Origin: a virus
Taxonomy: Duplodnaviria; Heunggongvirae; Uroviricota; Caudoviricetes
IMG/VR virus record: IMGVR_UViG_2541047844_000002
Coordinates: 1-7,281 of that record
Length of the DNA stretch: 7,281 bases
Reading direction: 5' to 3' (one strand)
Below the pieces are notes generated by a model. The model was given only the letters and a program-made list of their open reading frames with translations. It was not told the DNA's origin and searched no databases. Positions 1-7,281 of this stretch are shown here, one piece after another (the stretch's first letter is position 1; each line of letters opens with the position of its first letter). A program made the translations under genes and the position numbers.

Positions 1-14
1 TTGGTTTGGGAGAA
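1..14. other. Partial left recombination site (central dinucleotide plus inner half-site); outer half lies upstream of the window
   Basis: TT-GGTTTGGGAGAA is the exact reverse complement of 1857..1870. Confidence 0.65.
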
Positions 15-353
15 GCGGCTAAAAGGAATGTAGGGACAGGGGCGAATCAGATACCTGATATGGGTAGCTTCACGCTTTCTGTTTCAGGTACTGGATATCA
101 AAAATTACCATCAGGTTTTATTCTTCAGTGGGGCTCAATCGGCGCACCAGGCATTGCACAGGATGTAGTAACCCATTTCCCGATTGCATTTCCAAACAGA
201 TGTCTGCGTGTTTTGGTCTCACAAGACTACACACCAGATAGCGGGGCTGTTGGTTATATTGCCTGTGCAGGTTTTAGTCCCGACCCGGTTAAATTTATAT
301 CCAGAGCCAGTACTCCTGGCCTCGGCGCTTCATTTTTAGCGTTAGGCTGTTAA
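3..353 (+). CDS. Alternative tail-fibre C-terminal variable module (silent orientation, no own N-terminus); would fuse to H residues 1-276 after inversion
   Basis: The open frame runs from the window start in frame with the half-site codons G-L-G-E, matching the GLGE junction in H. The TTG start at 6 in the ORF track is probably an artefact. The fibre-tip-like sequence is followed 21 nt later by a tail-fibre-assembly gene. Confidence 0.7.
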
Positions 354-374
354 TTTAGCTATATGGAGTGAAAA

Positions 375-815
375 ATGAATTACATATATTCCGCGACTAC
401 AAACTCTTTCTATCCGCTGGAGATGAAAGAGGATTACACTCAAGCTGACTCATGGCCAGATGATGCTGTTGAAGTTGATGAGCAAGTGTATATTGAGTTT
501 TCCGGATTACCGCCGAAAGGAAAAATCCGTATCGCTGGAGAAAATGGTTTTCCTGCATGGTCTGAAATTCCACCACCAACACATGAGGAACAAATTGCTG
601 CAGCCGAATTGGAGAAGCAGCAATTGATTAATCAGGCCAACGATTATATGAACAGTAAACAATGGCCTGGTAAAGCGGCTATTGGTCGTCTGAAAGGTGA
701 CGAACTGGCGCAATATAATTTGTGGCTGGATTACCTGGACGCACTGGAACTGGTCGATACTTCCGGTGCGCCAGATATTGAATGGCCTACGCCTCCGGCA
801 GTTCAGGCCAGATGA
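375..815 (+). CDS. Tail fibre assembly protein (chaperone for the alternative fibre tip), P2 G / Mu U family
   Basis: 146 aa. A GGAG-like RBS (ggagtg) precedes the ATG. The C-terminal motif LDYLDALELVDTSGAPDIEWPTPP parallels LDYIDAVTATDTSTAPDVIWPELP in the convergent chaperone. Confidence 0.8.
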   Translation: MNYIYSATTNSFYPLEMKEDYTQADSWPDDAVEVDEQVYIEFSGLPPKGKIRIAGENGFPAWSEIPPPTHEEQIAAAELEKQQLINQANDYMNSKQWPGKAAIGRLKGDELAQYNLWLDYLDALELVDTSGAPDIEWPTPPAVQAR

Positions 816-1389
816 CATCCGGCGCGGTGCTGGTATCTGTTGCCGTCACCGCGTCAATGTAATCCAGCACAGCGTTAAGTCGGGTTGTTTCTGCCTGCGT
901 CAGTTTACGTCCGGCCTGCAATCTCAGTTGAATCAGACTGATGGAAGCCATTGCAGTATCAATCAGCGACTGGCGCTGTGCTTCTGCTGCATCTACTGCG
1001 GCGCTATGCTGTGTCTCGGTATCCGTCACCCATTTCTCACCATCCCATTTATCGTATGGCGTTGATGGGGCGATAGTGGTTGTATTTTCAGGGTAATCAC
1101 CCGGAGCGGTGATTTCTTTTGATTCTCCTGTTTCGGTGCTATAGACCGTTTCACCGCGATGATCTGGCACATATTCCCATGAGTTAAAATCTGCAGAACG
1201 GCAGATTGCATAACCAGCCTTATGTGTGCCAGGGGCATCTAAACAGGAATATGCAGGGATACCGACACCAATGGCAAGATATTCATTTGAAGTAGAAATA
1301 TATTCCCGAGTTTTACCATCATAGTTATAGACGGTAATATTCCCCGCCTTCGTGGCAATAAGCTCGCTATTTAATACGGCGTTATCCAT
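787..1389 (-). CDS. G: Tail fibre assembly protein (chaperone for the currently expressed fibre tip), P2 G-like
   Basis: 200 aa. Its start overlaps the H stop by 1 nt (TAATG). It carries the conserved C-terminal chaperone motif and sits where G sits after H in P2. Confidence 0.85.
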   Translation of the reverse strand: MDNAVLNSELIATKAGNITVYNYDGKTREYISTSNEYLAIGVGIPAYSCLDAPGTHKAGYAICRSADFNSWEYVPDHRGETVYSTETGESKEITAPGDYPENTTTIAPSTPYDKWDGEKWVTDTETQHSAAVDAAEAQRQSLIDTAMASISLIQLRLQAGRKLTQAETTRLNAVLDYIDAVTATDTSTAPDVIWPELPEA

Positions 1390-2696
1390 TATGCAGCCCT
1401 CACGATATAGTTAAATGCAATATTTCGTGGACGGGTTTCACTCCCGCCAGTATTACCGATACTCCCTCGTGAATGAAGTGTCGGTGATGGGATCAGACTC
1501 CCTCCTGTATTTGTGGCATCAAGTCCCCGTCCTTGTGTGTATGTCTTTTTGAAAATCGTAGCCAGTTCCCATTCATCTTTTGTGTCGTAACCATCATTGG
1601 CAACAACAATATGGCGGTGTTTTTCCAGCATCCCTGTCTGAATGCTCAATAAAACACGTCCTGCATCAATACCGCGCCCGTCATCCCAGCCACGAATAAA
1701 CTCACCACGTAAATCAGGCAATTTATTTGTCGGATAAGCCTTTGCCAGTTCCGGGTATTCTTCAGCAGAAAAAGCCGCACCGTTGCATTTCAGCCAGCCT
1801 GTTGGCGGTGTGGCTGAAGGCCATGGAACGGGCACACCAACAGGTAATGCAGAGCCTTCTCCCAAACCAAGGTATGTGAGAAGACCAGCTATATCCTTTC
1901 CACTCAAATGAGTCAGCGTCTCATCCAGTGGCTGCTTACCTGACAGCGCATTGTTAATGGTGGTGCTGAATTTCGGGTCATTGTTAATGGCTGCGGCAAT
2001 TTCTTTCAGTGTATCCAGCGTGGCAGGCGCACCGTTAATCAGAGCGGTAATAGCGGCCTGAACAAACTCAGTGGTCGCAATCCGCGTGGTGTTATTTCCT
2101 GCGGCAGGCGTCGGCGCTTTTGGTTCTCCGGTAAATGTCGGATTATGTTTCTGCGCATACTGGGTATGAGGATCCTGTGCGGCAATGTGGTTTCTCATCT
2201 GGTCATCCACATACAGCCTTAATTCCAGGACTTCATCATCCACGTATTTACGGGTCGCCAGTACCACCGACGGATCGATTTTCAGCGTAATAGCTTCGGT
2301 ATTCGTGACAACCAGAATCATGCGGATAGTCTGGGTACGACCACTGCCTTCCTGCAACTGCGGTTTGTACGTTTCCGGGCAGTTCGCCACCGCAATGAGT
2401 ACGCCTTCATCATCATAAAGCCCAATCTCACGGATCCAGAATCCGCCCTCGTTCTCAGGGATGATTTGCTCCGCAATAATCTGGCTCTGGTTGTTCGGGT
2501 CAACGCTCAGAAGATTCAGCGGCGCGATGCGTTTCTGGTTAATAAGTTTTGTCTGTGCCGGGTCTGGTGTCGGCAAGACACCATTTGCATCACCAACGGC
2601 CATTTGCGTCAGATTCAGCTTACTGCCGAGCATCGTCGCGTTAGCCAGCCGTGCCGCGCCCTGATTAGTCAGAATGGCGTAGTATTTCACTGTCAT
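1389..2696 (-). CDS. H: Tail fibre protein, P2 gpH-like (435 aa in current orientation); constant N-terminal part 1871..2696, variable C-terminal part 1389..1868
   Basis: The N-terminus has the gpH/Mu S-type conserved pattern (MAVGD..G.LP.P, GGFW.RE.GLYDD.G.LIAVAN, YKP...EGSGR.Q). The C-terminal part has a tail-collar-like motif (PTGWLKCNGAAFS..YPELA......LPDLRGEFIRGWDDGRG). Start overlaps the gpI stop (ATGA). Confidence 0.9.
   Translation of the reverse strand: MTVKYYAILTNQGAARLANATMLGSKLNLTQMAVGDANGVLPTPDPAQTKLINQKRIAPLNLLSVDPNNQSQIIAEQIIPENEGGFWIREIGLYDDEGVLIAVANCPETYKPQLQEGSGRTQTIRMILVVTNTEAITLKIDPSVVLATRKYVDDEVLELRLYVDDQMRNHIAAQDPHTQYAQKHNPTFTGEPKAPTPAAGNNTTRIATTEFVQAAITALINGAPATLDTLKEIAAAINNDPKFSTTINNALSGKQPLDETLTHLSGKDIAGLLTYLGLGEGSALPVGVPVPWPSATPPTGWLKCNGAAFSAEEYPELAKAYPTNKLPDLRGEFIRGWDDGRGIDAGRVLLSIQTGMLEKHRHIVVANDGYDTKDEWELATIFKKTYTQGRGLDATNTGGSLIPSPTLHSRGSIGNTGGSETRPRNIAFNYIVRAA
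1857..1882. other. 26-bp site-specific recombination (crossover) site inside tail-fibre gene H, hix/gix/cix-like
   Basis: TTCTCCCAAACC-AA-GGTATGTGAGAA has a 12+2+12 layout and closely resembles hixL as I recall it (TTCTTGAAAACC AA GGTTTTTGATAA). It encodes residues Y-L-G-L-G-E (275-280) of the fibre, at the junction of constant and variable parts. Confidence 0.7.
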
Positions 2697-3304
2697 GCGT
2701 TTACTCTCAGGTTATCAATTAAATGAATGGCCGAGGCCGGGAAATAATCCCCTCCGACAATAATGGCCTCCGGGGTGTAGGGATAAACCGTCAGGGCGTC
2801 GCCGTGATAGCATCCCGCACCAGCAAAAATGTTGCCGGTTGTACTTAAACTGATAGCCAGTCCCGTCAGATGGCGGCTTGCAGGTTTTGCATCAGCAACG
2901 AGACGCTCCAGCTCCTGATACATTTCCTCGGTAATACCCTGCTCAAGCACGCCAACAACGATACGGAACGTCCCCGGCTCCTCGTTGAGTTGCCACCACT
3001 CCCTCACCTCAATCAGATAGCCGAGCGGCTCCACCACGCGCCGGATTGCGCCTATAGTGCCCTTATGGCAGTGAATGAAATACGCATCGCGGATAACAGC
3101 GCGTTTTGTCGCTTCCGGCCATTTATCATCCCAGCGGTCAACCGAAAATGACCACGCCAGCCACGGCAGCAGATTTGCCGGGCAGGTGTCCGGGTTCCAC
3201 AGCTCACGAATACTGACCGGCGTTTTTTCAATTTCCGCACAGGCTTTTGCGGCGGCAACTTCAAGCGGTGATGAGCCGGTCGGCAGCAGTCGCGAATCAC
3301 TCAT
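2693..3304 (-). CDS. I: Baseplate assembly / tail protein I (P2 gpI-like)
   Basis: 203 aa. It lies between J and H as in P2 and is translationally coupled at both ends (8-bp overlap with J, 4-bp with H). Confidence 0.8.
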   Translation of the reverse strand: MSDSRLLPTGSSPLEVAAAKACAEIEKTPVSIRELWNPDTCPANLLPWLAWSFSVDRWDDKWPEATKRAVIRDAYFIHCHKGTIGAIRRVVEPLGYLIEVREWWQLNEEPGTFRIVVGVLEQGITEEMYQELERLVADAKPASRHLTGLAISLSTTGNIFAGAGCYHGDALTVYPYTPEAIIVGGDYFPASAIHLIDNLRVNA

Positions 3305-4205
3305 CCGAGCCTCCGGTCACAACGCGGTATTCGGTACAGAAAGACGCCTGCGTACTGTTGAGCACGATGTCGGCCAGCGGTGCAGCCAGTTCGACACGCT
3401 GCACGCCTTCCACATGCAAAGCGGCATAAATGGCAGACAGACGGATGTCGCGCCCCAGCCGGTGCTGTGCCGTGATGTACGCTTCCAGTTTTTTCACGGC
3501 AGCAGCGCGGATGGGTTCGCTTTCGGGACCAGGGTAAAGGTAAAGCGTGGCGTTTATCTGGTATTCAACGATGGCGGCAGACTGCACGGTCACGCGGTCG
3601 GCCACCGGCCTGACGTCCTCGCCATTAAGGGCGTTACGCACCACCGCCAGCAGGTCTTCGGATGCCACACCGTTATTTTCACGTGACAGCACAGAGATGG
3701 TGACACAGGCAGGAGACGGACTGGTGACAGAGATATCCGCGACACGCCCGTCGGCACTGCGACCATGATACTGATAGGCTCCCACCGACCCGGCGACGCT
3801 TAAACCTTCAAACGCCTGCTGAATACGCAGACGATAATCGGTGTCAGACTCCATCACTGCCGGTGTCGGCGGAATGGTCGAATCATCTGCCGGGGTGATA
3901 ATCAGGCGCGTGGTGTTGTAATTGGCACCAATCACATCAAGGTCATTACCGGCGGCACAGGCCAGCATCACCGCCCGTGCGGCCTCATTCACACGCTGAC
4001 GCCAGATAAGCTCACGATAAGCATTTTCCTCCAGCAGTTTGACGAGAGGCTCAGATTCCAGCGTCAGGGTACGGGCGACCGCCTCCTGCTGGTCTTCCGG
4101 GTAAAGGGAAATCAGTGTCGCCTTGCGTTCGGCAAGAATGGTTTCAAAGTCCAGCTCCTCGACCACATCCGGTGCGGGTAGCTGGTTCAGGTCGATAATC
4201 GGCAT
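3297..4205 (-). CDS. J: Baseplate assembly protein J (P2 gpJ-like)
   Basis: 302 aa, the size I recall for P2 gpJ. It lies between W and I. Confidence 0.85.
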   Translation of the reverse strand: MPIIDLNQLPAPDVVEELDFETILAERKATLISLYPEDQQEAVARTLTLESEPLVKLLEENAYRELIWRQRVNEAARAVMLACAAGNDLDVIGANYNTTRLIITPADDSTIPPTPAVMESDTDYRLRIQQAFEGLSVAGSVGAYQYHGRSADGRVADISVTSPSPACVTISVLSRENNGVASEDLLAVVRNALNGEDVRPVADRVTVQSAAIVEYQINATLYLYPGPESEPIRAAAVKKLEAYITAQHRLGRDIRLSAIYAALHVEGVQRVELAAPLADIVLNSTQASFCTEYRVVTGGSDE

Positions 4206-4209
4206 GGTT

Positions 4210-4557
4210 TCAACTCACAGGGATGGTTAACGAAAGTGGCTGGCCAGTGTCGTTGTGCCGGCCGGTTAACGTAACCGTCATTCGCCCGTCAAAACTGCGC
4301 GCCGTAGTGACGGATGACAGGGTGACGCGGGGTTCCCATTTCAGCACCGCCATGTAACAGGCGACCTTAATCTGCAACTCAAGCGCCGGGGTCTGCGGCT
4401 GGTCAATCATTGACGCCAGCAACGAGCCGTAATCACGACGCATCACCCGCGAGCCGACCGGTGTGCGCAGGATATCGCCGATACTCTGGCTGATATGCTC
4501 AAGGTCAGTGACAGTCAGGCCATCACTGCGATTCATTCCGAGATAACGCGCAGTCAT
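4210..4557 (-). CDS. W: Baseplate wedge protein W (GPW/gp25 family)
   Basis: 115 aa, the size of P2 gpW, in the conserved position between V and J. Its start overlaps the V stop (ATGA). Confidence 0.85.
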   Translation of the reverse strand: MTARYLGMNRSDGLTVTDLEHISQSIGDILRTPVGSRVMRRDYGSLLASMIDQPQTPALELQIKVACYMAVLKWEPRVTLSSVTTARSFDGRMTVTLTGRHNDTGQPLSLTIPVS

Positions 4558-5189
4558 AGAGGTCCCCCTGTTGTGCCGCCACTGTCGCCGGGGTGTTTAT
4601 GGGTATGAAGTACCTTCCCGTTTGATGAGAGTTCACCGCCGGTGTGTTCAATGTTGCCGCGCATCGTCCCGCCCTTCTGCACTTCCAGCGTGCCGGTAAT
4701 CAGCCTGTTGGTGCAGACCACCTCCGGTGCGTCCAGGGTGACGCGGGTTGATGCTTTCACCATGACCACCGGCACCGTGGCGGTAACAGAATCAGAAGCC
4801 GTCACGCTGGCCGTTTTAATTCCGCTTACCGTGAGTGCACTGGTTTCAGGTTCATACTCAATCACCGCCCCGTCAGGGAAACGGATATGCAGGGCATCCG
4901 CCGACGCCGACGGCGCGGGGTTATCGCCGGAATAAATCCCCGGCAGAACGAACGCCGTGTCGAGTTCACCGCCCACGGCCAGAATCAGCACCTGCTCCCC
5001 CACGGAAGGTGCCCACCATGTGCGCGAACGTCCGGCGCGATGGGTCAGCCACTGAAGCCAGTCGGTGCACATGCCGCCGGTCTGCACACGGCAGCGACCG
5101 GCGTTAAGGTCGGTTTCGACGATAATGCCGGTGCGGATCATGTTGCGCAGTGCGCGCGCGAGTTCCTGAATATTTGCGAGAGTGTTCAT
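4554..5189 (-). CDS. V: Baseplate spike / assembly protein V (P2 gpV-like)
   Basis: 211 aa, the size of P2 gpV, and the first gene of the V-W-J-I-H-G block. The Gly-rich C-terminus (HPGDSGGTTGGP) is typical of spike-apex proteins. Confidence 0.85.
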   Translation of the reverse strand: MNTLANIQELARALRNMIRTGIIVETDLNAGRCRVQTGGMCTDWLQWLTHRAGRSRTWWAPSVGEQVLILAVGGELDTAFVLPGIYSGDNPAPSASADALHIRFPDGAVIEYEPETSALTVSGIKTASVTASDSVTATVPVVMVKASTRVTLDAPEVVCTNRLITGTLEVQKGGTMRGNIEHTGGELSSNGKVLHTHKHPGDSGGTTGGPL

Positions 5190-5200
5190 AACGGGAAGGA

Positions 5201-5224
5201 TGCCGCCGGGTCATACCGGCGGCA
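5201..5224 (-). terminator. GC-rich hairpin between S and V (possible terminator of the upstream late operon or structure over the V translation start)
   Basis: Perfect 9-bp inverted repeat TGCCGCCGG-gtcata-CCGGCGGCA. It lies 32 nt after the S stop and 12 nt before the V ATG. No clean U-tract follows on the sense strand. Confidence 0.3.
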
Positions 5225-5255
5225 ATGTGACGATGAGGTGTCGGGAATGGCACAA

Positions 5256-5708
5256 CTAACGCTCAAGGTGAGCCAGGATAATCTCTTCAATCATCTGCAC
5301 ATCCTCACCGGTAAAGCCGAGCAGAGGACGCGCCGGATAATCAATTTTCTTACCGTCTTTCCGGTTTTCTTCCGACAGACCGAACTGATGCACGCTGGCG
5401 ATTTTCGGTGACTTTCCGCCGTAAAACTCCATTGATGCCTGTTCCGGGCTGGCGCGGATATGCAAAAAACGACTGGTGATAAGTTTCGCAAACATTTTTC
5501 GCTTAACGCGACCGGTCTTTTTTCTGGCGCTCTGCTGCTGGCGTGGCGCATAGGGTGTGCCATCCGGGGCTTTCTGTGCCATCACCCGGCGCTGCTGACT
5601 CTGCCGCAGACGTTTCGCCAGTTCTGCACTCAGTCGCCGACGCCCTGACGGTGACAGCGATTCAATCAGTCCGGCCAGCCGGTCTTCAAAACGCTTAAAC
5701 TCATTCAT
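5256..5708 (-). CDS. S: Tail completion / virion morphogenesis protein S (P2 gpS-like)
   Basis: 150 aa, the size of P2 gpS. It follows R with an 8-bp overlap and precedes V. Confidence 0.8.
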   Translation of the reverse strand: MNEFKRFEDRLAGLIESLSPSGRRRLSAELAKRLRQSQQRRVMAQKAPDGTPYAPRQQQSARKKTGRVKRKMFAKLITSRFLHIRASPEQASMEFYGGKSPKIASVHQFGLSEENRKDGKKIDYPARPLLGFTGEDVQMIEEIILAHLER

Positions 5709-6168
5709 CCCACTTGCTCACCAGTTCGCCATTGATATAAAGCTCCATCGGGCGGGTGACCGGCTCCGGCGGCGGGGGTTCCGGGATATTCTTCACATGC
5801 AGCGCGCCGTCCACCTCACTGACCAGCGTGCGCTCGGTCAGCATCAGGCTGATACTGATATCAAAGCTGCTGTCATTGTTGATGTCTGCATAAAACGTGA
5901 AGCCCTTTTTCTGGCCTGCGTCGGTGGTCATGATGTCGGGCTGATTTTCCCGCAGCCACGCCAGCACCGGCACGATGAGCAGGTCAAAATCACCAGTAAA
6001 GTCGGTCACAATGACATTGAGCGTGTAACGCTTTTCGAATGACAACGACGTCGCCAGTGTGGAGGCAATACTCCCGTTATCCACGAATATCCGCAGCATC
6101 TCGGGACTGGTTTTCAGCACCGTGACGGCATCAGTCAGCGCCCTGCGCAGGCTGTCGGGTTTGAGCAT
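5701..6168 (-). CDS. R: Tail completion protein R (P2 gpR-like)
   Basis: 155 aa, the size of P2 gpR. It starts with MLKPDSLRRALTDAV and contains FVDNGSI and LAWLRENQPDIMTTD motifs, which I recognise as gpR-like. It lies between the lysis genes and S. Confidence 0.85.
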   Translation of the reverse strand: MLKPDSLRRALTDAVTVLKTSPEMLRIFVDNGSIASTLATSLSFEKRYTLNVIVTDFTGDFDLLIVPVLAWLRENQPDIMTTDAGQKKGFTFYADINNDSSFDISISLMLTERTLVSEVDGALHVKNIPEPPPPEPVTRPMELYINGELVSKWDE

Positions 6169-6421
6169 CGTTTTCGTCCTGACAGTGTTTAATCATTTTT
6201 ACCTGGCTGGCACAGCGTGCCAGCGCGTTCTCAAGCTGCCGGATATCGGCACTTAAATCACCGTTCGTCTGCGGGTCACTGCCCGGCATCGGGCAAAGGC
6301 TCACTTTCGGGCAGGCGTTGTGGACAATCACTGGCGTCGGTGCAGGCCGGGCGCTGGTGCAACCGGCGCACAGCATCAGGCAGGCCAGCGCCGTACCAGC
6401 GGCGAAAATCTTCGTTTTCAT
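6131..6421 (-). CDS. lysC: Outer-membrane spanin lipoprotein LysC (Rz1-like)
   Basis: 96 aa. It has a signal peptide with a lipobox-like Cys (LACLMLCAGC), then a Pro-rich mature part. It starts inside lysB in another frame and extends into R, the nested P2 lysB/lysC arrangement. Confidence 0.75.
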   Translation of the reverse strand: MKTKIFAAGTALACLMLCAGCTSARPAPTPVIVHNACPKVSLCPMPGSDPQTNGDLSADIRQLENALARCASQVKMIKHCQDENDAQTRQPAQGAD

Positions 6422-6701
6422 TCAGTAACCTCGTGATGGTTTTCTCGCGCTGTGCTTCACGCTTCGCGGCGTTCTCCAGCTCCTGACGCAGTGCCACCTG
6501 CGCCAGCTCGTTTTTGTCTGCTCTGGTGAGGGCAACATGAAGCTGATTTTTCAGCATGGTGATGGTCGTCTGCTGCCCGTTGGCGACGTTGTTCGCCCTG
6601 TCCAGCGAGGCGCGCAGGCTGGCGTTTTCATGCTTCGCCAGAAACAGCCCCGCCACCGCCAGCGATAACAACACGACCAGCACAATCATCAGCTTTGACA
6701 T
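6276..6701 (-). CDS. lysB: Inner-membrane spanin LysB (Rz-like)
   Basis: 141 aa with an N-terminal transmembrane helix (MSKLMIVLVVLLSLAVAGLFLA) and a charged helical periplasmic region. It follows lysA with a 13-bp overlap. Confidence 0.8.
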   Translation of the reverse strand: MSKLMIVLVVLLSLAVAGLFLAKHENASLRASLDRANNVANGQQTTITMLKNQLHVALTRADKNELAQVALRQELENAAKREAQREKTITRLLNENEDFRRWYGAGLPDAVRRLHQRPACTDASDCPQRLPESEPLPDAGQ

Positions 6702-7114
6702 AATTCCCGCCCCTCAAGACGCTGACGACAGGCTTTACGTATCAGCCGGAAAAACAGCGACGCCACAAGATAAATCAGCGCGGTAAAAATCCACCCGGCA
6801 GCGACCAGCGAGATAAACGTCGCCACCATCACCACCAGACCCACCGCCCGTCTGCACCACGTCACCGGCTGCAAAAACAGCGACGTGACAATCTTCACGG
6901 CCAGCGATTCCGGCGGCAGCTCCCGCCCGTAGCGTTCAAGTACATACTCAGTGGCATACACGCCGACACCACCGGCAACCACACAGATAACCGTCGCCAG
7001 AATCGCCCAGGCAGCGACAAAACTGACGGCCACGCTCTGCGGGTAAATCAGGGACAGTGCCAGCATCAGCGCCAGCAACACGTTCAGCATCAGTGAAAGG
7101 GATAATTTCTTCAT
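6689..7114 (-). CDS. lysA: Lysis-timing membrane protein LysA (P2 LysA-like)
   Basis: 141 aa, very hydrophobic with several predicted transmembrane segments. It sits between the endolysin and lysB as in P2. Confidence 0.75.
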   Translation of the reverse strand: MKKLSLSLMLNVLLALMLALSLIYPQSVAVSFVAAWAILATVICVVAGGVGVYATEYVLERYGRELPPESLAVKIVTSLFLQPVTWCRRAVGLVVMVATFISLVAAGWIFTALIYLVASLFFRLIRKACRQRLEGRELCQS

Positions 7115-7128
7115 GGTGTTTACTCCGT

Positions 7129-7281
7129 TTAAGCCGGTACGCCGCCAGCGGTACGCCAGACGGTGACCAGTTTTTCCAGTGAATGTTCACGCTGACCGTA
7201 ACCGGCACCCGGCAGGGACGCCCAGATATTGCGACAGCGTGAAATGGCGCGCTCAATGCGTCCCGCCCGGATGTCATCCAG
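7129..7281 (-). CDS. K: Endolysin (phage lysozyme, P2 gpK-like), C-terminal 50 codons only; 5' end outside window
   Basis: The open frame from the window edge translates as LDDIRAGRIERAISRCRNIWASLPGAGYGQREHSLEKLVTVWRTAGGVPA, then stops (TAA, complement of 7129..7131) 14 nt before the lysA start. It is in the position of K in the P2 lysis cassette. Confidence 0.65.
   Translation of the reverse strand: MDDIRAGRIERAISRCRNIWASLPGAGYGQREHSLEKLVTVWRTAGGVPA

Follow-up and report, generated by a model that had tools for sequence, protein, structure and literature searches.

The 7281-base stretch of DNA analysed here, referred to throughout as the window, carries tail, baseplate and lysis genes of a P2-like prophage on its minus strand. 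Homologues of the P2 genes lysA/B/C, R, S, V, W, J and I are present, together with a 435-aa tail fibre (the H homologue; 1389..2696, minus strand) and a 200-aa tail-fibre assembly protein. Over all 7281 bases, the nearest matches among public sequences are E. coli prophages with 97–99.2% identity to the window. The G+C content is 45–51% in the segment that occupies positions 1–1870, compared with 55–61% in the rest of the window.

The fibre gene is composed of a constant and a variable part. The constant N-terminal part (1869..2696, minus strand; 276 aa) is of the P2 H type and matches Pfam Phage_tail_fib over residues 1–150 (E = 1.4e-62). It runs into the tip that is now expressed (1389..1868, minus strand), a domain of the T4 gp37–gp12 type that matches Pfam Collar (E = 4.5e-15) and T4 gp37 in the PDB (2XGF; E = 8.5e-17), with further similarity to gp12 and to StfE of the e14 prophage. 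The TfaE-like 200-aa chaperone of this tip follows at 787..1389 on the same strand (Caudo_TAP, E = 5e-33). A second cassette of the same design lies on the plus strand. The two are convergent, each consisting of a variable part followed by its own Caudo_TAP gene, and their chaperone genes overlap by 29 bp.

The plus-strand cassette begins with a frame (3..353) that is open from the window edge and comprises 116 codons followed by TAA. Its first residues, GLGE, are supplied by the crossover site described below, and in the present orientation the frame is not fused to the constant part. The encoded tip matches Pfam Gp53-like_C (PF21882) over residues 34–116 with an E-value of 3.7e-15 and 56.7 bits (cut-off 24.9). 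In several PHROG tail-fibre families it aligns with the very end of the profile (e.g. positions 413–532 of 534; the last ~100 profile positions), which identifies it as a C-terminal fibre module. An AlphaFold2 model built from 25 homologues was of moderate quality (mean pLDDT of 70.4). Its top five PDB matches were to gp53 of Acinetobacter phage AP22 (PDB code 4MTM) and the C-terminal foot of the R1/R2 pyocin fibre, with Foldseek E-values of 5e-5 to 2e-4, a probability of 1.00 and TM-scores of 0.45–0.59, and a PDB search with the sequence only returned the same proteins (E = 1e-3 to 1e-2). The predicted fold of the tip thus resembles the fibre feet of R-pyocins and AP22 gp53. Among homologues of the tip the first half is nearly invariant and the second half is very variable, as expected for the receptor-binding end of a fibre, and in the Mu-like phage vB_EcoM-720R4 an allele of this same tip forms the C-terminus of the expressed fibre. 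Similarity between the alternative and the expressed tip was limited to a BLASTP E-value of 0.11, and the two belong to different Pfam families (Gp53-like_C and Collar). Their unrelated folds suggest that the receptor specificities of the two tips may differ.

A 21-nt spacer (354..374, plus strand), in which a GGAG ribosome-binding site can be read at 364–367, separates the tip from a gene for a 146-aa TfaP-like tail-fibre assembly protein (375..815, plus strand), with the GGAG placed 7 nt before the ATG. The protein matches Caudo_TAP (PF02413; E = 1.5e-37, 129.1 bits, cut-off 22.1) and phrog_188 (E = 2.7e-66). A PDB sequence search with it gave nothing meaningful (best E = 0.81), and its placement relies on Pfam, PHROGs and the published architecture of Mu Tfa. 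According to the model published for Mu Tfa and Pam3 gp25 (PMC9608196), the fibre tip is bound by an N-terminal domain that varies, and trimerization is driven by a helical C-terminal domain that is conserved. The two chaperones of the window agree with this model, in that their C-terminal 72 residues are 38% identical and their N-terminal parts are unrelated. It is therefore reasonable to regard the 146-aa protein as the putative dedicated chaperone of the 116-aa tip.

Both frames of the cassette are intact, without stop codons, in every full-length copy among 33 fetched loci. Three of the loci (L010, L014 and L019) are prophage remnants that retain the invertase and the intact tip but have lost the 146-aa chaperone gene beyond its first 63 nt. 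Between the tip and its most distant allele, that of vB_EcoM-720R4 (78% nucleotide identity), there are 44 synonymous and 33 non-synonymous changes, giving a dN/dS of 0.16. Close alleles of the tip differ by 14 synonymous versus two non-synonymous changes, and for the 146-aa chaperone dN/dS is about 0.1. The cassette is, judged from these ratios, under purifying selection. A decayed pseudogene, the alternative named alongside the original prediction of a tip cassette at this position, was rejected on the intact frames together with dN/dS values of 0.16 or lower.

Crossover sites and the two orientations

A perfect 15-bp inverted repeat, TTGGTTTGGGAGAAG, is found at positions 1–15 and 1856–1870 and bounds a segment of 1870 bp. 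Each copy contains the inner half-site and central dinucleotide of a 26-bp crossover site, with matching TT/AA cores. The left site reads TTTTCATAAACG-TT-GGTTTGGGAGAA; its core TT and inner 12-bp half-site make up the arm at 1..15, and its outer half, TTTTCATAAACG, lies just outside the window and was read in relatives, the full 26-bp site being readable in loci L003 and L021. The right site, TTCTCCCAAACC-AA-GGTATGTGAGAA, is located inside the fibre gene at 1857–1882 (1856..1882 when the whole repeat arm at 1856–1870 is included). Both inner half-sites and both core dinucleotides are perfect. The window repeat is identical to the crossover repeat of the e14 P segment, TTGGTTTGGGAGAAGG, which has been mapped experimentally as the segment boundary (PMC12529663). 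No third copy was detected in the window when up to three mismatches were allowed, and a shufflon-like multi-site system was rejected on the presence of exactly two copies.

The repeat encodes GLGE in both fibre frames, so that an exchange at the central dinucleotide joins the end of the constant part, ...DIAGLLTYL, to either tip without a frame shift. The junction LTYL|GLGE is in frame for both tips and is seen in both orientations. To find the second orientation, a query was assembled from 400 nt of the constant part and 400 nt of the cassette, arranged as expected after inversion. About 30 complete E. coli genomes carry this flipped junction in contiguous form, with identities reaching 99.5%. 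The annotation of two of the fetched loci (L005 and L006) gives it as a tail fibre of 392 aa with a 146-aa Tfa behind it, and the TfaE-like gene and the Collar tip there adjoin the recombinase. Pairwise BLASTN of the window against L005 gives an inversion with ends exactly at the 15-bp repeat, and only two residues separate the L005 protein from the flipped fibre that the window predicts. The opposite junction, in which the gp53-like tip adjoins the invertase side, occurs in 112 of 5,426 complete genomes, ~25 of them at the identity level of the P2-like copies (~97% or more). At that level roughly 25 copies carry the alternative tip in the silent and 20 in the expressed position, and both orientations are thus comparably common among close P2-like copies.

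Assemblies of single isolates also yielded the segment as stand-alone contigs, exactly 1870 or 1837 bp long and with the repeat at both ends; one of these contigs was present in 19 samples. On its own, a repeat of 15 bp is not long enough to break a k = 31 assembly graph, and a mixture of orientations within the culture is the simplest cause of such contigs, although two identical copies of the segment in one genome could in principle produce them as well. Inversion-based phase variation within cultures has been demonstrated experimentally for e14 and for P2-like E. coli prophages (PMC4272514). Base 1 of the window coincides with the crossover, as do the ends of the stand-alone 1870-bp contigs, yet the window runs on through the right-hand site; that its start marks an assembly break is unproven.

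Systems of this type have a Fis-dependent recombinational enhancer in the 5' part of the invertase gene. Since the source-genome window begins at the left crossover, the invertase, the enhancer and the outer half-site lie outside it, and the view of the invertase and of that half-site is supplied by relatives. Near-identical relatives carry a recombinase gene (197 aa; Resolvase/HTH_7) that reads away from the segment, with its start 67 bp from window base 1 on the left. Identity of the encoded protein is 87% with PinE, 80% with Gin and 78% with Cin. Eight loci carry an identical 435-aa fibre, and in seven of these the invertase is intact and identical; the eighth (L020) has a nonsense mutation, from which it follows that locked copies exist. 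By extension from the relatives, the source genome probably carries an active invertase too.

The same segment is present in Mu-like prophages, where homology to the window extends from base 1 to 1873, that is, to the crossover site. Homology with the flipped relatives and with the Mu-like prophages breaks at the right crossover site. The swapping of tail-fibre modules between phage families is a long-established idea, and the occurrence of the segment in Mu-like prophages together with its differing G+C content leads us to read it as behaving as such an exchanged module.

We propose, with a probability of roughly 85%, that positions 1–1870 invert as a unit and thereby switch the tail fibre of a P2-like E. 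coli prophage between two states, as in the e14 Pin, Mu Gin and P1 Cin systems. The constant part of the minus-strand H homologue ends at a 26-bp crossover site and, in the present orientation, runs into the Collar-type tip and then the TfaE-like chaperone gene, with the gp53/R-pyocin-foot-like tip and its own chaperone on the opposite strand. A PinE-like serine invertase encoded to the left of the window, as in the relatives, would recombine the inverted sites at the central TT/AA and flip the 1870 bp. The flip would join ...LTYL to the tip that starts with GLGE, creating a 392-aa fibre with a different distal domain; this fibre and the chaperone that matches it would be co-translated from the P2 late operon. 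Phage or tailocin-like particles assembled in the flipped state would then be expected to recognize a different surface receptor.

Most of the original prediction is borne out by these results. It had described a tip encoded by a plus-strand frame starting at a recombination half-site, and the frame at 3..353 is indeed open, of 116 codons, a member of Gp53-like_C and headed by the perfect repeat. The 146-aa assembly chaperone placed directly after the tip is confirmed by its Caudo_TAP match, and the lack of sequence relationship to the expressed tip by the BLASTP comparison and the different Pfam families. The idea that inversion brings the alternative tip into frame with the constant part is upheld by the ~30 flipped genomes, the annotated 392-aa fibres and the breakpoints at the repeat.

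The alternative tip in its unfused position

The original prediction also held that the cassette is silent and that the tip has no independent N-terminus, and neither of these points is secure. In all ten near-identical P2-like loci the tip frame extends upstream by 14 codons to an ATG located 40 nt to the left of the window, giving MMPVARYLCIFINV-GLGE, and e14 is arranged likewise, with a leader that begins ATGATG; the leader is MMPVARYLCIFINV in the P2-like loci and MMPFACYFFIFINV in e14. PGAP calls the resulting 130-aa ORF in relatives a 'gp53-like domain-containing protein'. In Mu-like prophages with an identical tip, an in-frame stop stands two codons before GLGE and there is no leader. 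A potential independent N-terminus is available in the ten P2-like relatives and is lacking in the Mu-like prophages. As to silence, the tip is unfused in the window orientation and no promoter was found upstream of it or of the leader in scans of window positions 1–2000 and of the invertase-to-tip region of L003, scans that also missed the invertase's own promoter and whose promoter and terminator counts were near those of shuffled sequence. Against silence stand the ATG leader of the relatives and the reported expression of a comparable protein from e14. This protein, StfE2, arises after inversion by fusion of the stfE leader to the gp53-like StfP tip in the invertase-proximal position; Kirigo et al. 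(2025; PMC12529663) report that it is produced, lowers the adsorption of T2 and confers protection from several phages.

By analogy, the cassette might be expressed as a 130-aa leader–tip protein, probably with the help of the 146-aa chaperone, that masks outer-membrane receptors in the lysogen in the manner of StfE2. Such a role would be compatible with the switch, and we consider it unlikely. It is favoured by the ATGATG leader that is in frame in all ten P2-like loci and in e14, by the annotation of the 130-aa ORF, by the identical construction of StfE2 with its reported block of T2 adsorption and by the orientation of the window, which matches the StfE2 configuration. The tip, however, is only 27% identical to the StfP tip, and the support for StfE2 consists largely of plasmid over-expression and docking (PMC12529663). 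The promoter scans of the window and of L003 gave no promoter-like site upstream, which for simple scans is weak evidence, and a GGAG abuts the leader ATG at a poor spacing. The leader differs from that of e14 by four non-synonymous changes against one synonymous change, a pattern that suggests that it is not constrained as a protein. The Mu-like prophages keep an identical tip behind a stop codon and without the leader, indicating that the conservation of the tip is independent of stand-alone expression. In its fullest form this proposal would have the silent cassette expressed from the invertase-proximal ATG as a receptor-masking protein assisted by the chaperone, so that one inversion toggles both the host range of the prophage and the defence of its host; we hold this version to be improbable to the same degree. 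If it were true, the StfE2 mechanism of the defective e14 prophage would be a general property of intact P2-like prophages.

A frozen relic, in which the invertase of the source genome has been lost or inactivated or a site has been damaged, leaving the cassette permanently unexpressed and awaiting decay, appears slightly less probable still. The position of the invertase outside the window leaves room for such a history, and individual relatives illustrate it: the nonsense mutation in the L020 invertase, the truncated remnants L010, L014 and L019 described above, and L023, in which an IS66 element is inserted in the gene for the 200-aa chaperone. The perfect inner half-sites and core dinucleotides of the window argue against it, as do the intact and identical invertase in seven of the eight loci that share the 435-aa fibre and the intact ORFs with their signature of purifying selection. 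Moreover, other Pin-family invertases in the same cell can act in trans on the same repeat (PMC12529663). A chance pair of ORFs, or a mis-assembled or duplicated fragment of a fibre gene without any switch, has only the run of the frame off the window edge in its favour and is effectively ruled out by the strong domain matches, the identical architecture in dozens of independent complete genomes and the breakpoints exactly at the repeat.

The two-state switch is thus the reading that we retain. On this reading the locus is a clean and intact case of a P2-like prophage, of a kind widespread in E. coli, that is programmed to switch its host range. The practical lessons are modest: gene callers report the unexpressed tip as a separate protein of 130 aa, assemblies break at this segment, and fibre-based prediction of host range for such prophages must weigh both tips.

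Comparison with known systems

Switch systems of this kind have been on record from the 1980s onwards, and the cassette itself is present and annotated in many public genomes. For comparison with the classical examples, the Mu G (S/U, S'/U', gin) and P1 C (S/U, S'/U', cin) regions were fetched and searched by BLASTP with all four cassette proteins. Features in common with both are a two-state inversion, driven by a serine invertase of the Gin family to judge from the relatives, the location of one site inside the fibre gene and a separate Tfa gene behind each variable part. The C-terminal domain of Tfa is conserved, at about 30% identity to U'. The relationship to Mu and P1 is limited to these chaperone C-domains and the invertase: neither window tip is similar to the Sv or S'v parts of Mu and P1 (all E-values above 2), and the homology to the Mu S' and P1 S' tips suggested with the original prediction is absent. 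For the 116-aa tip there was no BLASTP match to Mu S, Mu S'v or P1 S'v at E-values up to 10, and P1 S gave only fragments of 9–11 residues (E = 3.9 and 9.0). The segments also differ in size (1.87 kb in the window against about 3 kb for Mu and 4.2 kb for P1), and beyond the central AACC..GGTT core the window sites depart from the gix and cix sequences.

The best sequence and fold matches of the 116-aa tip, the R-type pyocin foot and AP22 gp53 (PDB codes 6CL5, 6CL6, 6CT8, 6CXB and 4MTM), are more distant in sequence, at about 20% identity, and the TM-scores of 0.45–0.59 were obtained with a model of pLDDT 70. They resemble the tip in being distal receptor-binding domains of P2-type fibres that need a separate chaperone. 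A further known system is that of the invertible fibre loci in P2-like prophages of E. coli E2348/69 (Goldberg et al., 2014; PMC4272514), in which an invertase and inverted repeats generate alternative fibre C-termini and experiments found the variants side by side within a single culture. One of those loci has three repeats and four variants, whereas the window has two sites.

The closest counterpart is the e14 P segment of E. coli K-12 (stfP–tfaP / tfaE–stfE / pinE). E14 is a defective lambdoid remnant with a constant part of 97 aa, whereas the window holds an apparently complete P2-like tail module with a 276-aa constant part of the P2 H type; relative to the K-12 reference, the window is in the 'inverted' orientation, with the StfE-like tip expressed. 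The alternative tips of both systems belong to Gp53-like_C. In the window this tip is only 27% identical to that of StfP (E = 1.6e-5), so that the search against e14 produced a weak match, to the only related tip among those of Mu, P1 and e14. The remaining components correspond more closely. Both systems have the crossover repeat TTGGTTTGGGAGAAG(G), a common gene order and convergent chaperone genes that overlap by 29 bp. Identity amounts to 92% between the 200-aa chaperone and TfaE, 87% between the invertase of the relatives and PinE and 62% between the expressed tip and StfE; for the 146-aa chaperone and TfaP it is 61% and confined to the last 96 residues (51–146). The 130-aa product predicted in the relatives carries the divergent tip and has the same construction as StfE2 of e14 (Kirigo et al., 2025; PMC12529663), a short invertase-proximal leader joined to a gp53-like tip in a non-fibre position.

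Exchange within the invertible segment

Across 19 loci, drawn from P2-like as well as Mu-like prophages, the gp53-like tip (window 3–353, plus strand) is 100% identical in nucleotide sequence, but the adjacent TfaE-like gene (787–1389, minus strand) diverges by 6–10% among these loci. Judged from the sequences, this disparity suggests either that the tip allele has spread recently or that mosaic recombination has occurred within the segment. Window 1441–1654, the central part of the expressed Collar-type tip, gave no BLASTN match in the Mu-like loci or in L005 and L006, two relatives carrying the segment in the flipped orientation, and both of its flanks match these loci at 92–97%. We interpret window 1441–1654 as a replaced block within the Collar-type tip. 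The G+C content of the invertible segment (45–51%, window 1–2000) compared with that of the remaining P2-like module (55–61%, window 2800–7281) is consistent with horizontal exchange of the segment as a module.

Three related loci (L010, L014 and L019, about 5378–6432) hold the remains of prophages that retain just a Pin-like invertase, the gp53-like tip and, from the chaperone gene of the tip, its first 63 nucleotides. These remnants are 100% identical to window 1–437, the remainder of the prophages having been deleted or broken up by an IS21-family element.

Invertase and segment orientation

The invertase is intact and identical in seven of the eight loci that share the identical fibre. In the eighth, L020 (8764–9357; GCA_023055925.1), where the adjoining prophage region is otherwise 98% identical to that of the window, the invertase gene contains an internal stop codon and this copy is therefore probably locked in the orientation of the window.

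Stand-alone contigs of the segment from isolate assemblies (L028, L029, L032 and L033) begin exactly at window base 1; such contigs are 1870 or 1837 bp in length, with the 15-bp repeat at their ends. The shared start of the window and these contigs suggests that the presence of both orientations in the cultures causes assembly graphs to break at the crossover. The window, unlike the stand-alone contigs, runs on past the right-hand crossover site.

S–V spacer and lysis genes

Homologues of P2 S and V are separated by a spacer of only 66 bp (window 5190–5255). In relatives, this interval holds an extra gene (L024, 1899–3425; L003, 9267–10007) encoding either a 508-residue protein, whose matches to AAA are weak and to TIR faint, or a 246-residue hypothetical protein, and it looks like an insertion hotspot for cargo or defence genes. 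On the minus strand (window 6131–6421 and 6276–6701), the Rz1-like LysC frame lies partly inside the Rz-like LysB gene in a different reading frame, an arrangement that is usual for P2-type spanins.

Convergent chaperone genes

In a prophage 99% identical to that of the window (L023, 7475–10234), the TfaE-like chaperone gene is interrupted by an IS66-family element, an insertion that would prevent the Collar-tip fibre from being assembled and leave the gp53-like cassette intact. The convergent chaperone genes share a conserved C-terminal motif (LDYLDA or LDYIDA), and its coding on opposite strands gives rise to an 18-nucleotide inverted repeat (window 725–742 and 851–868; 89% complementary). 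The 3' ends of these genes overlap by 29 bp (window 787–815), exactly as do those of the chaperone genes in the E. coli K-12 element e14.
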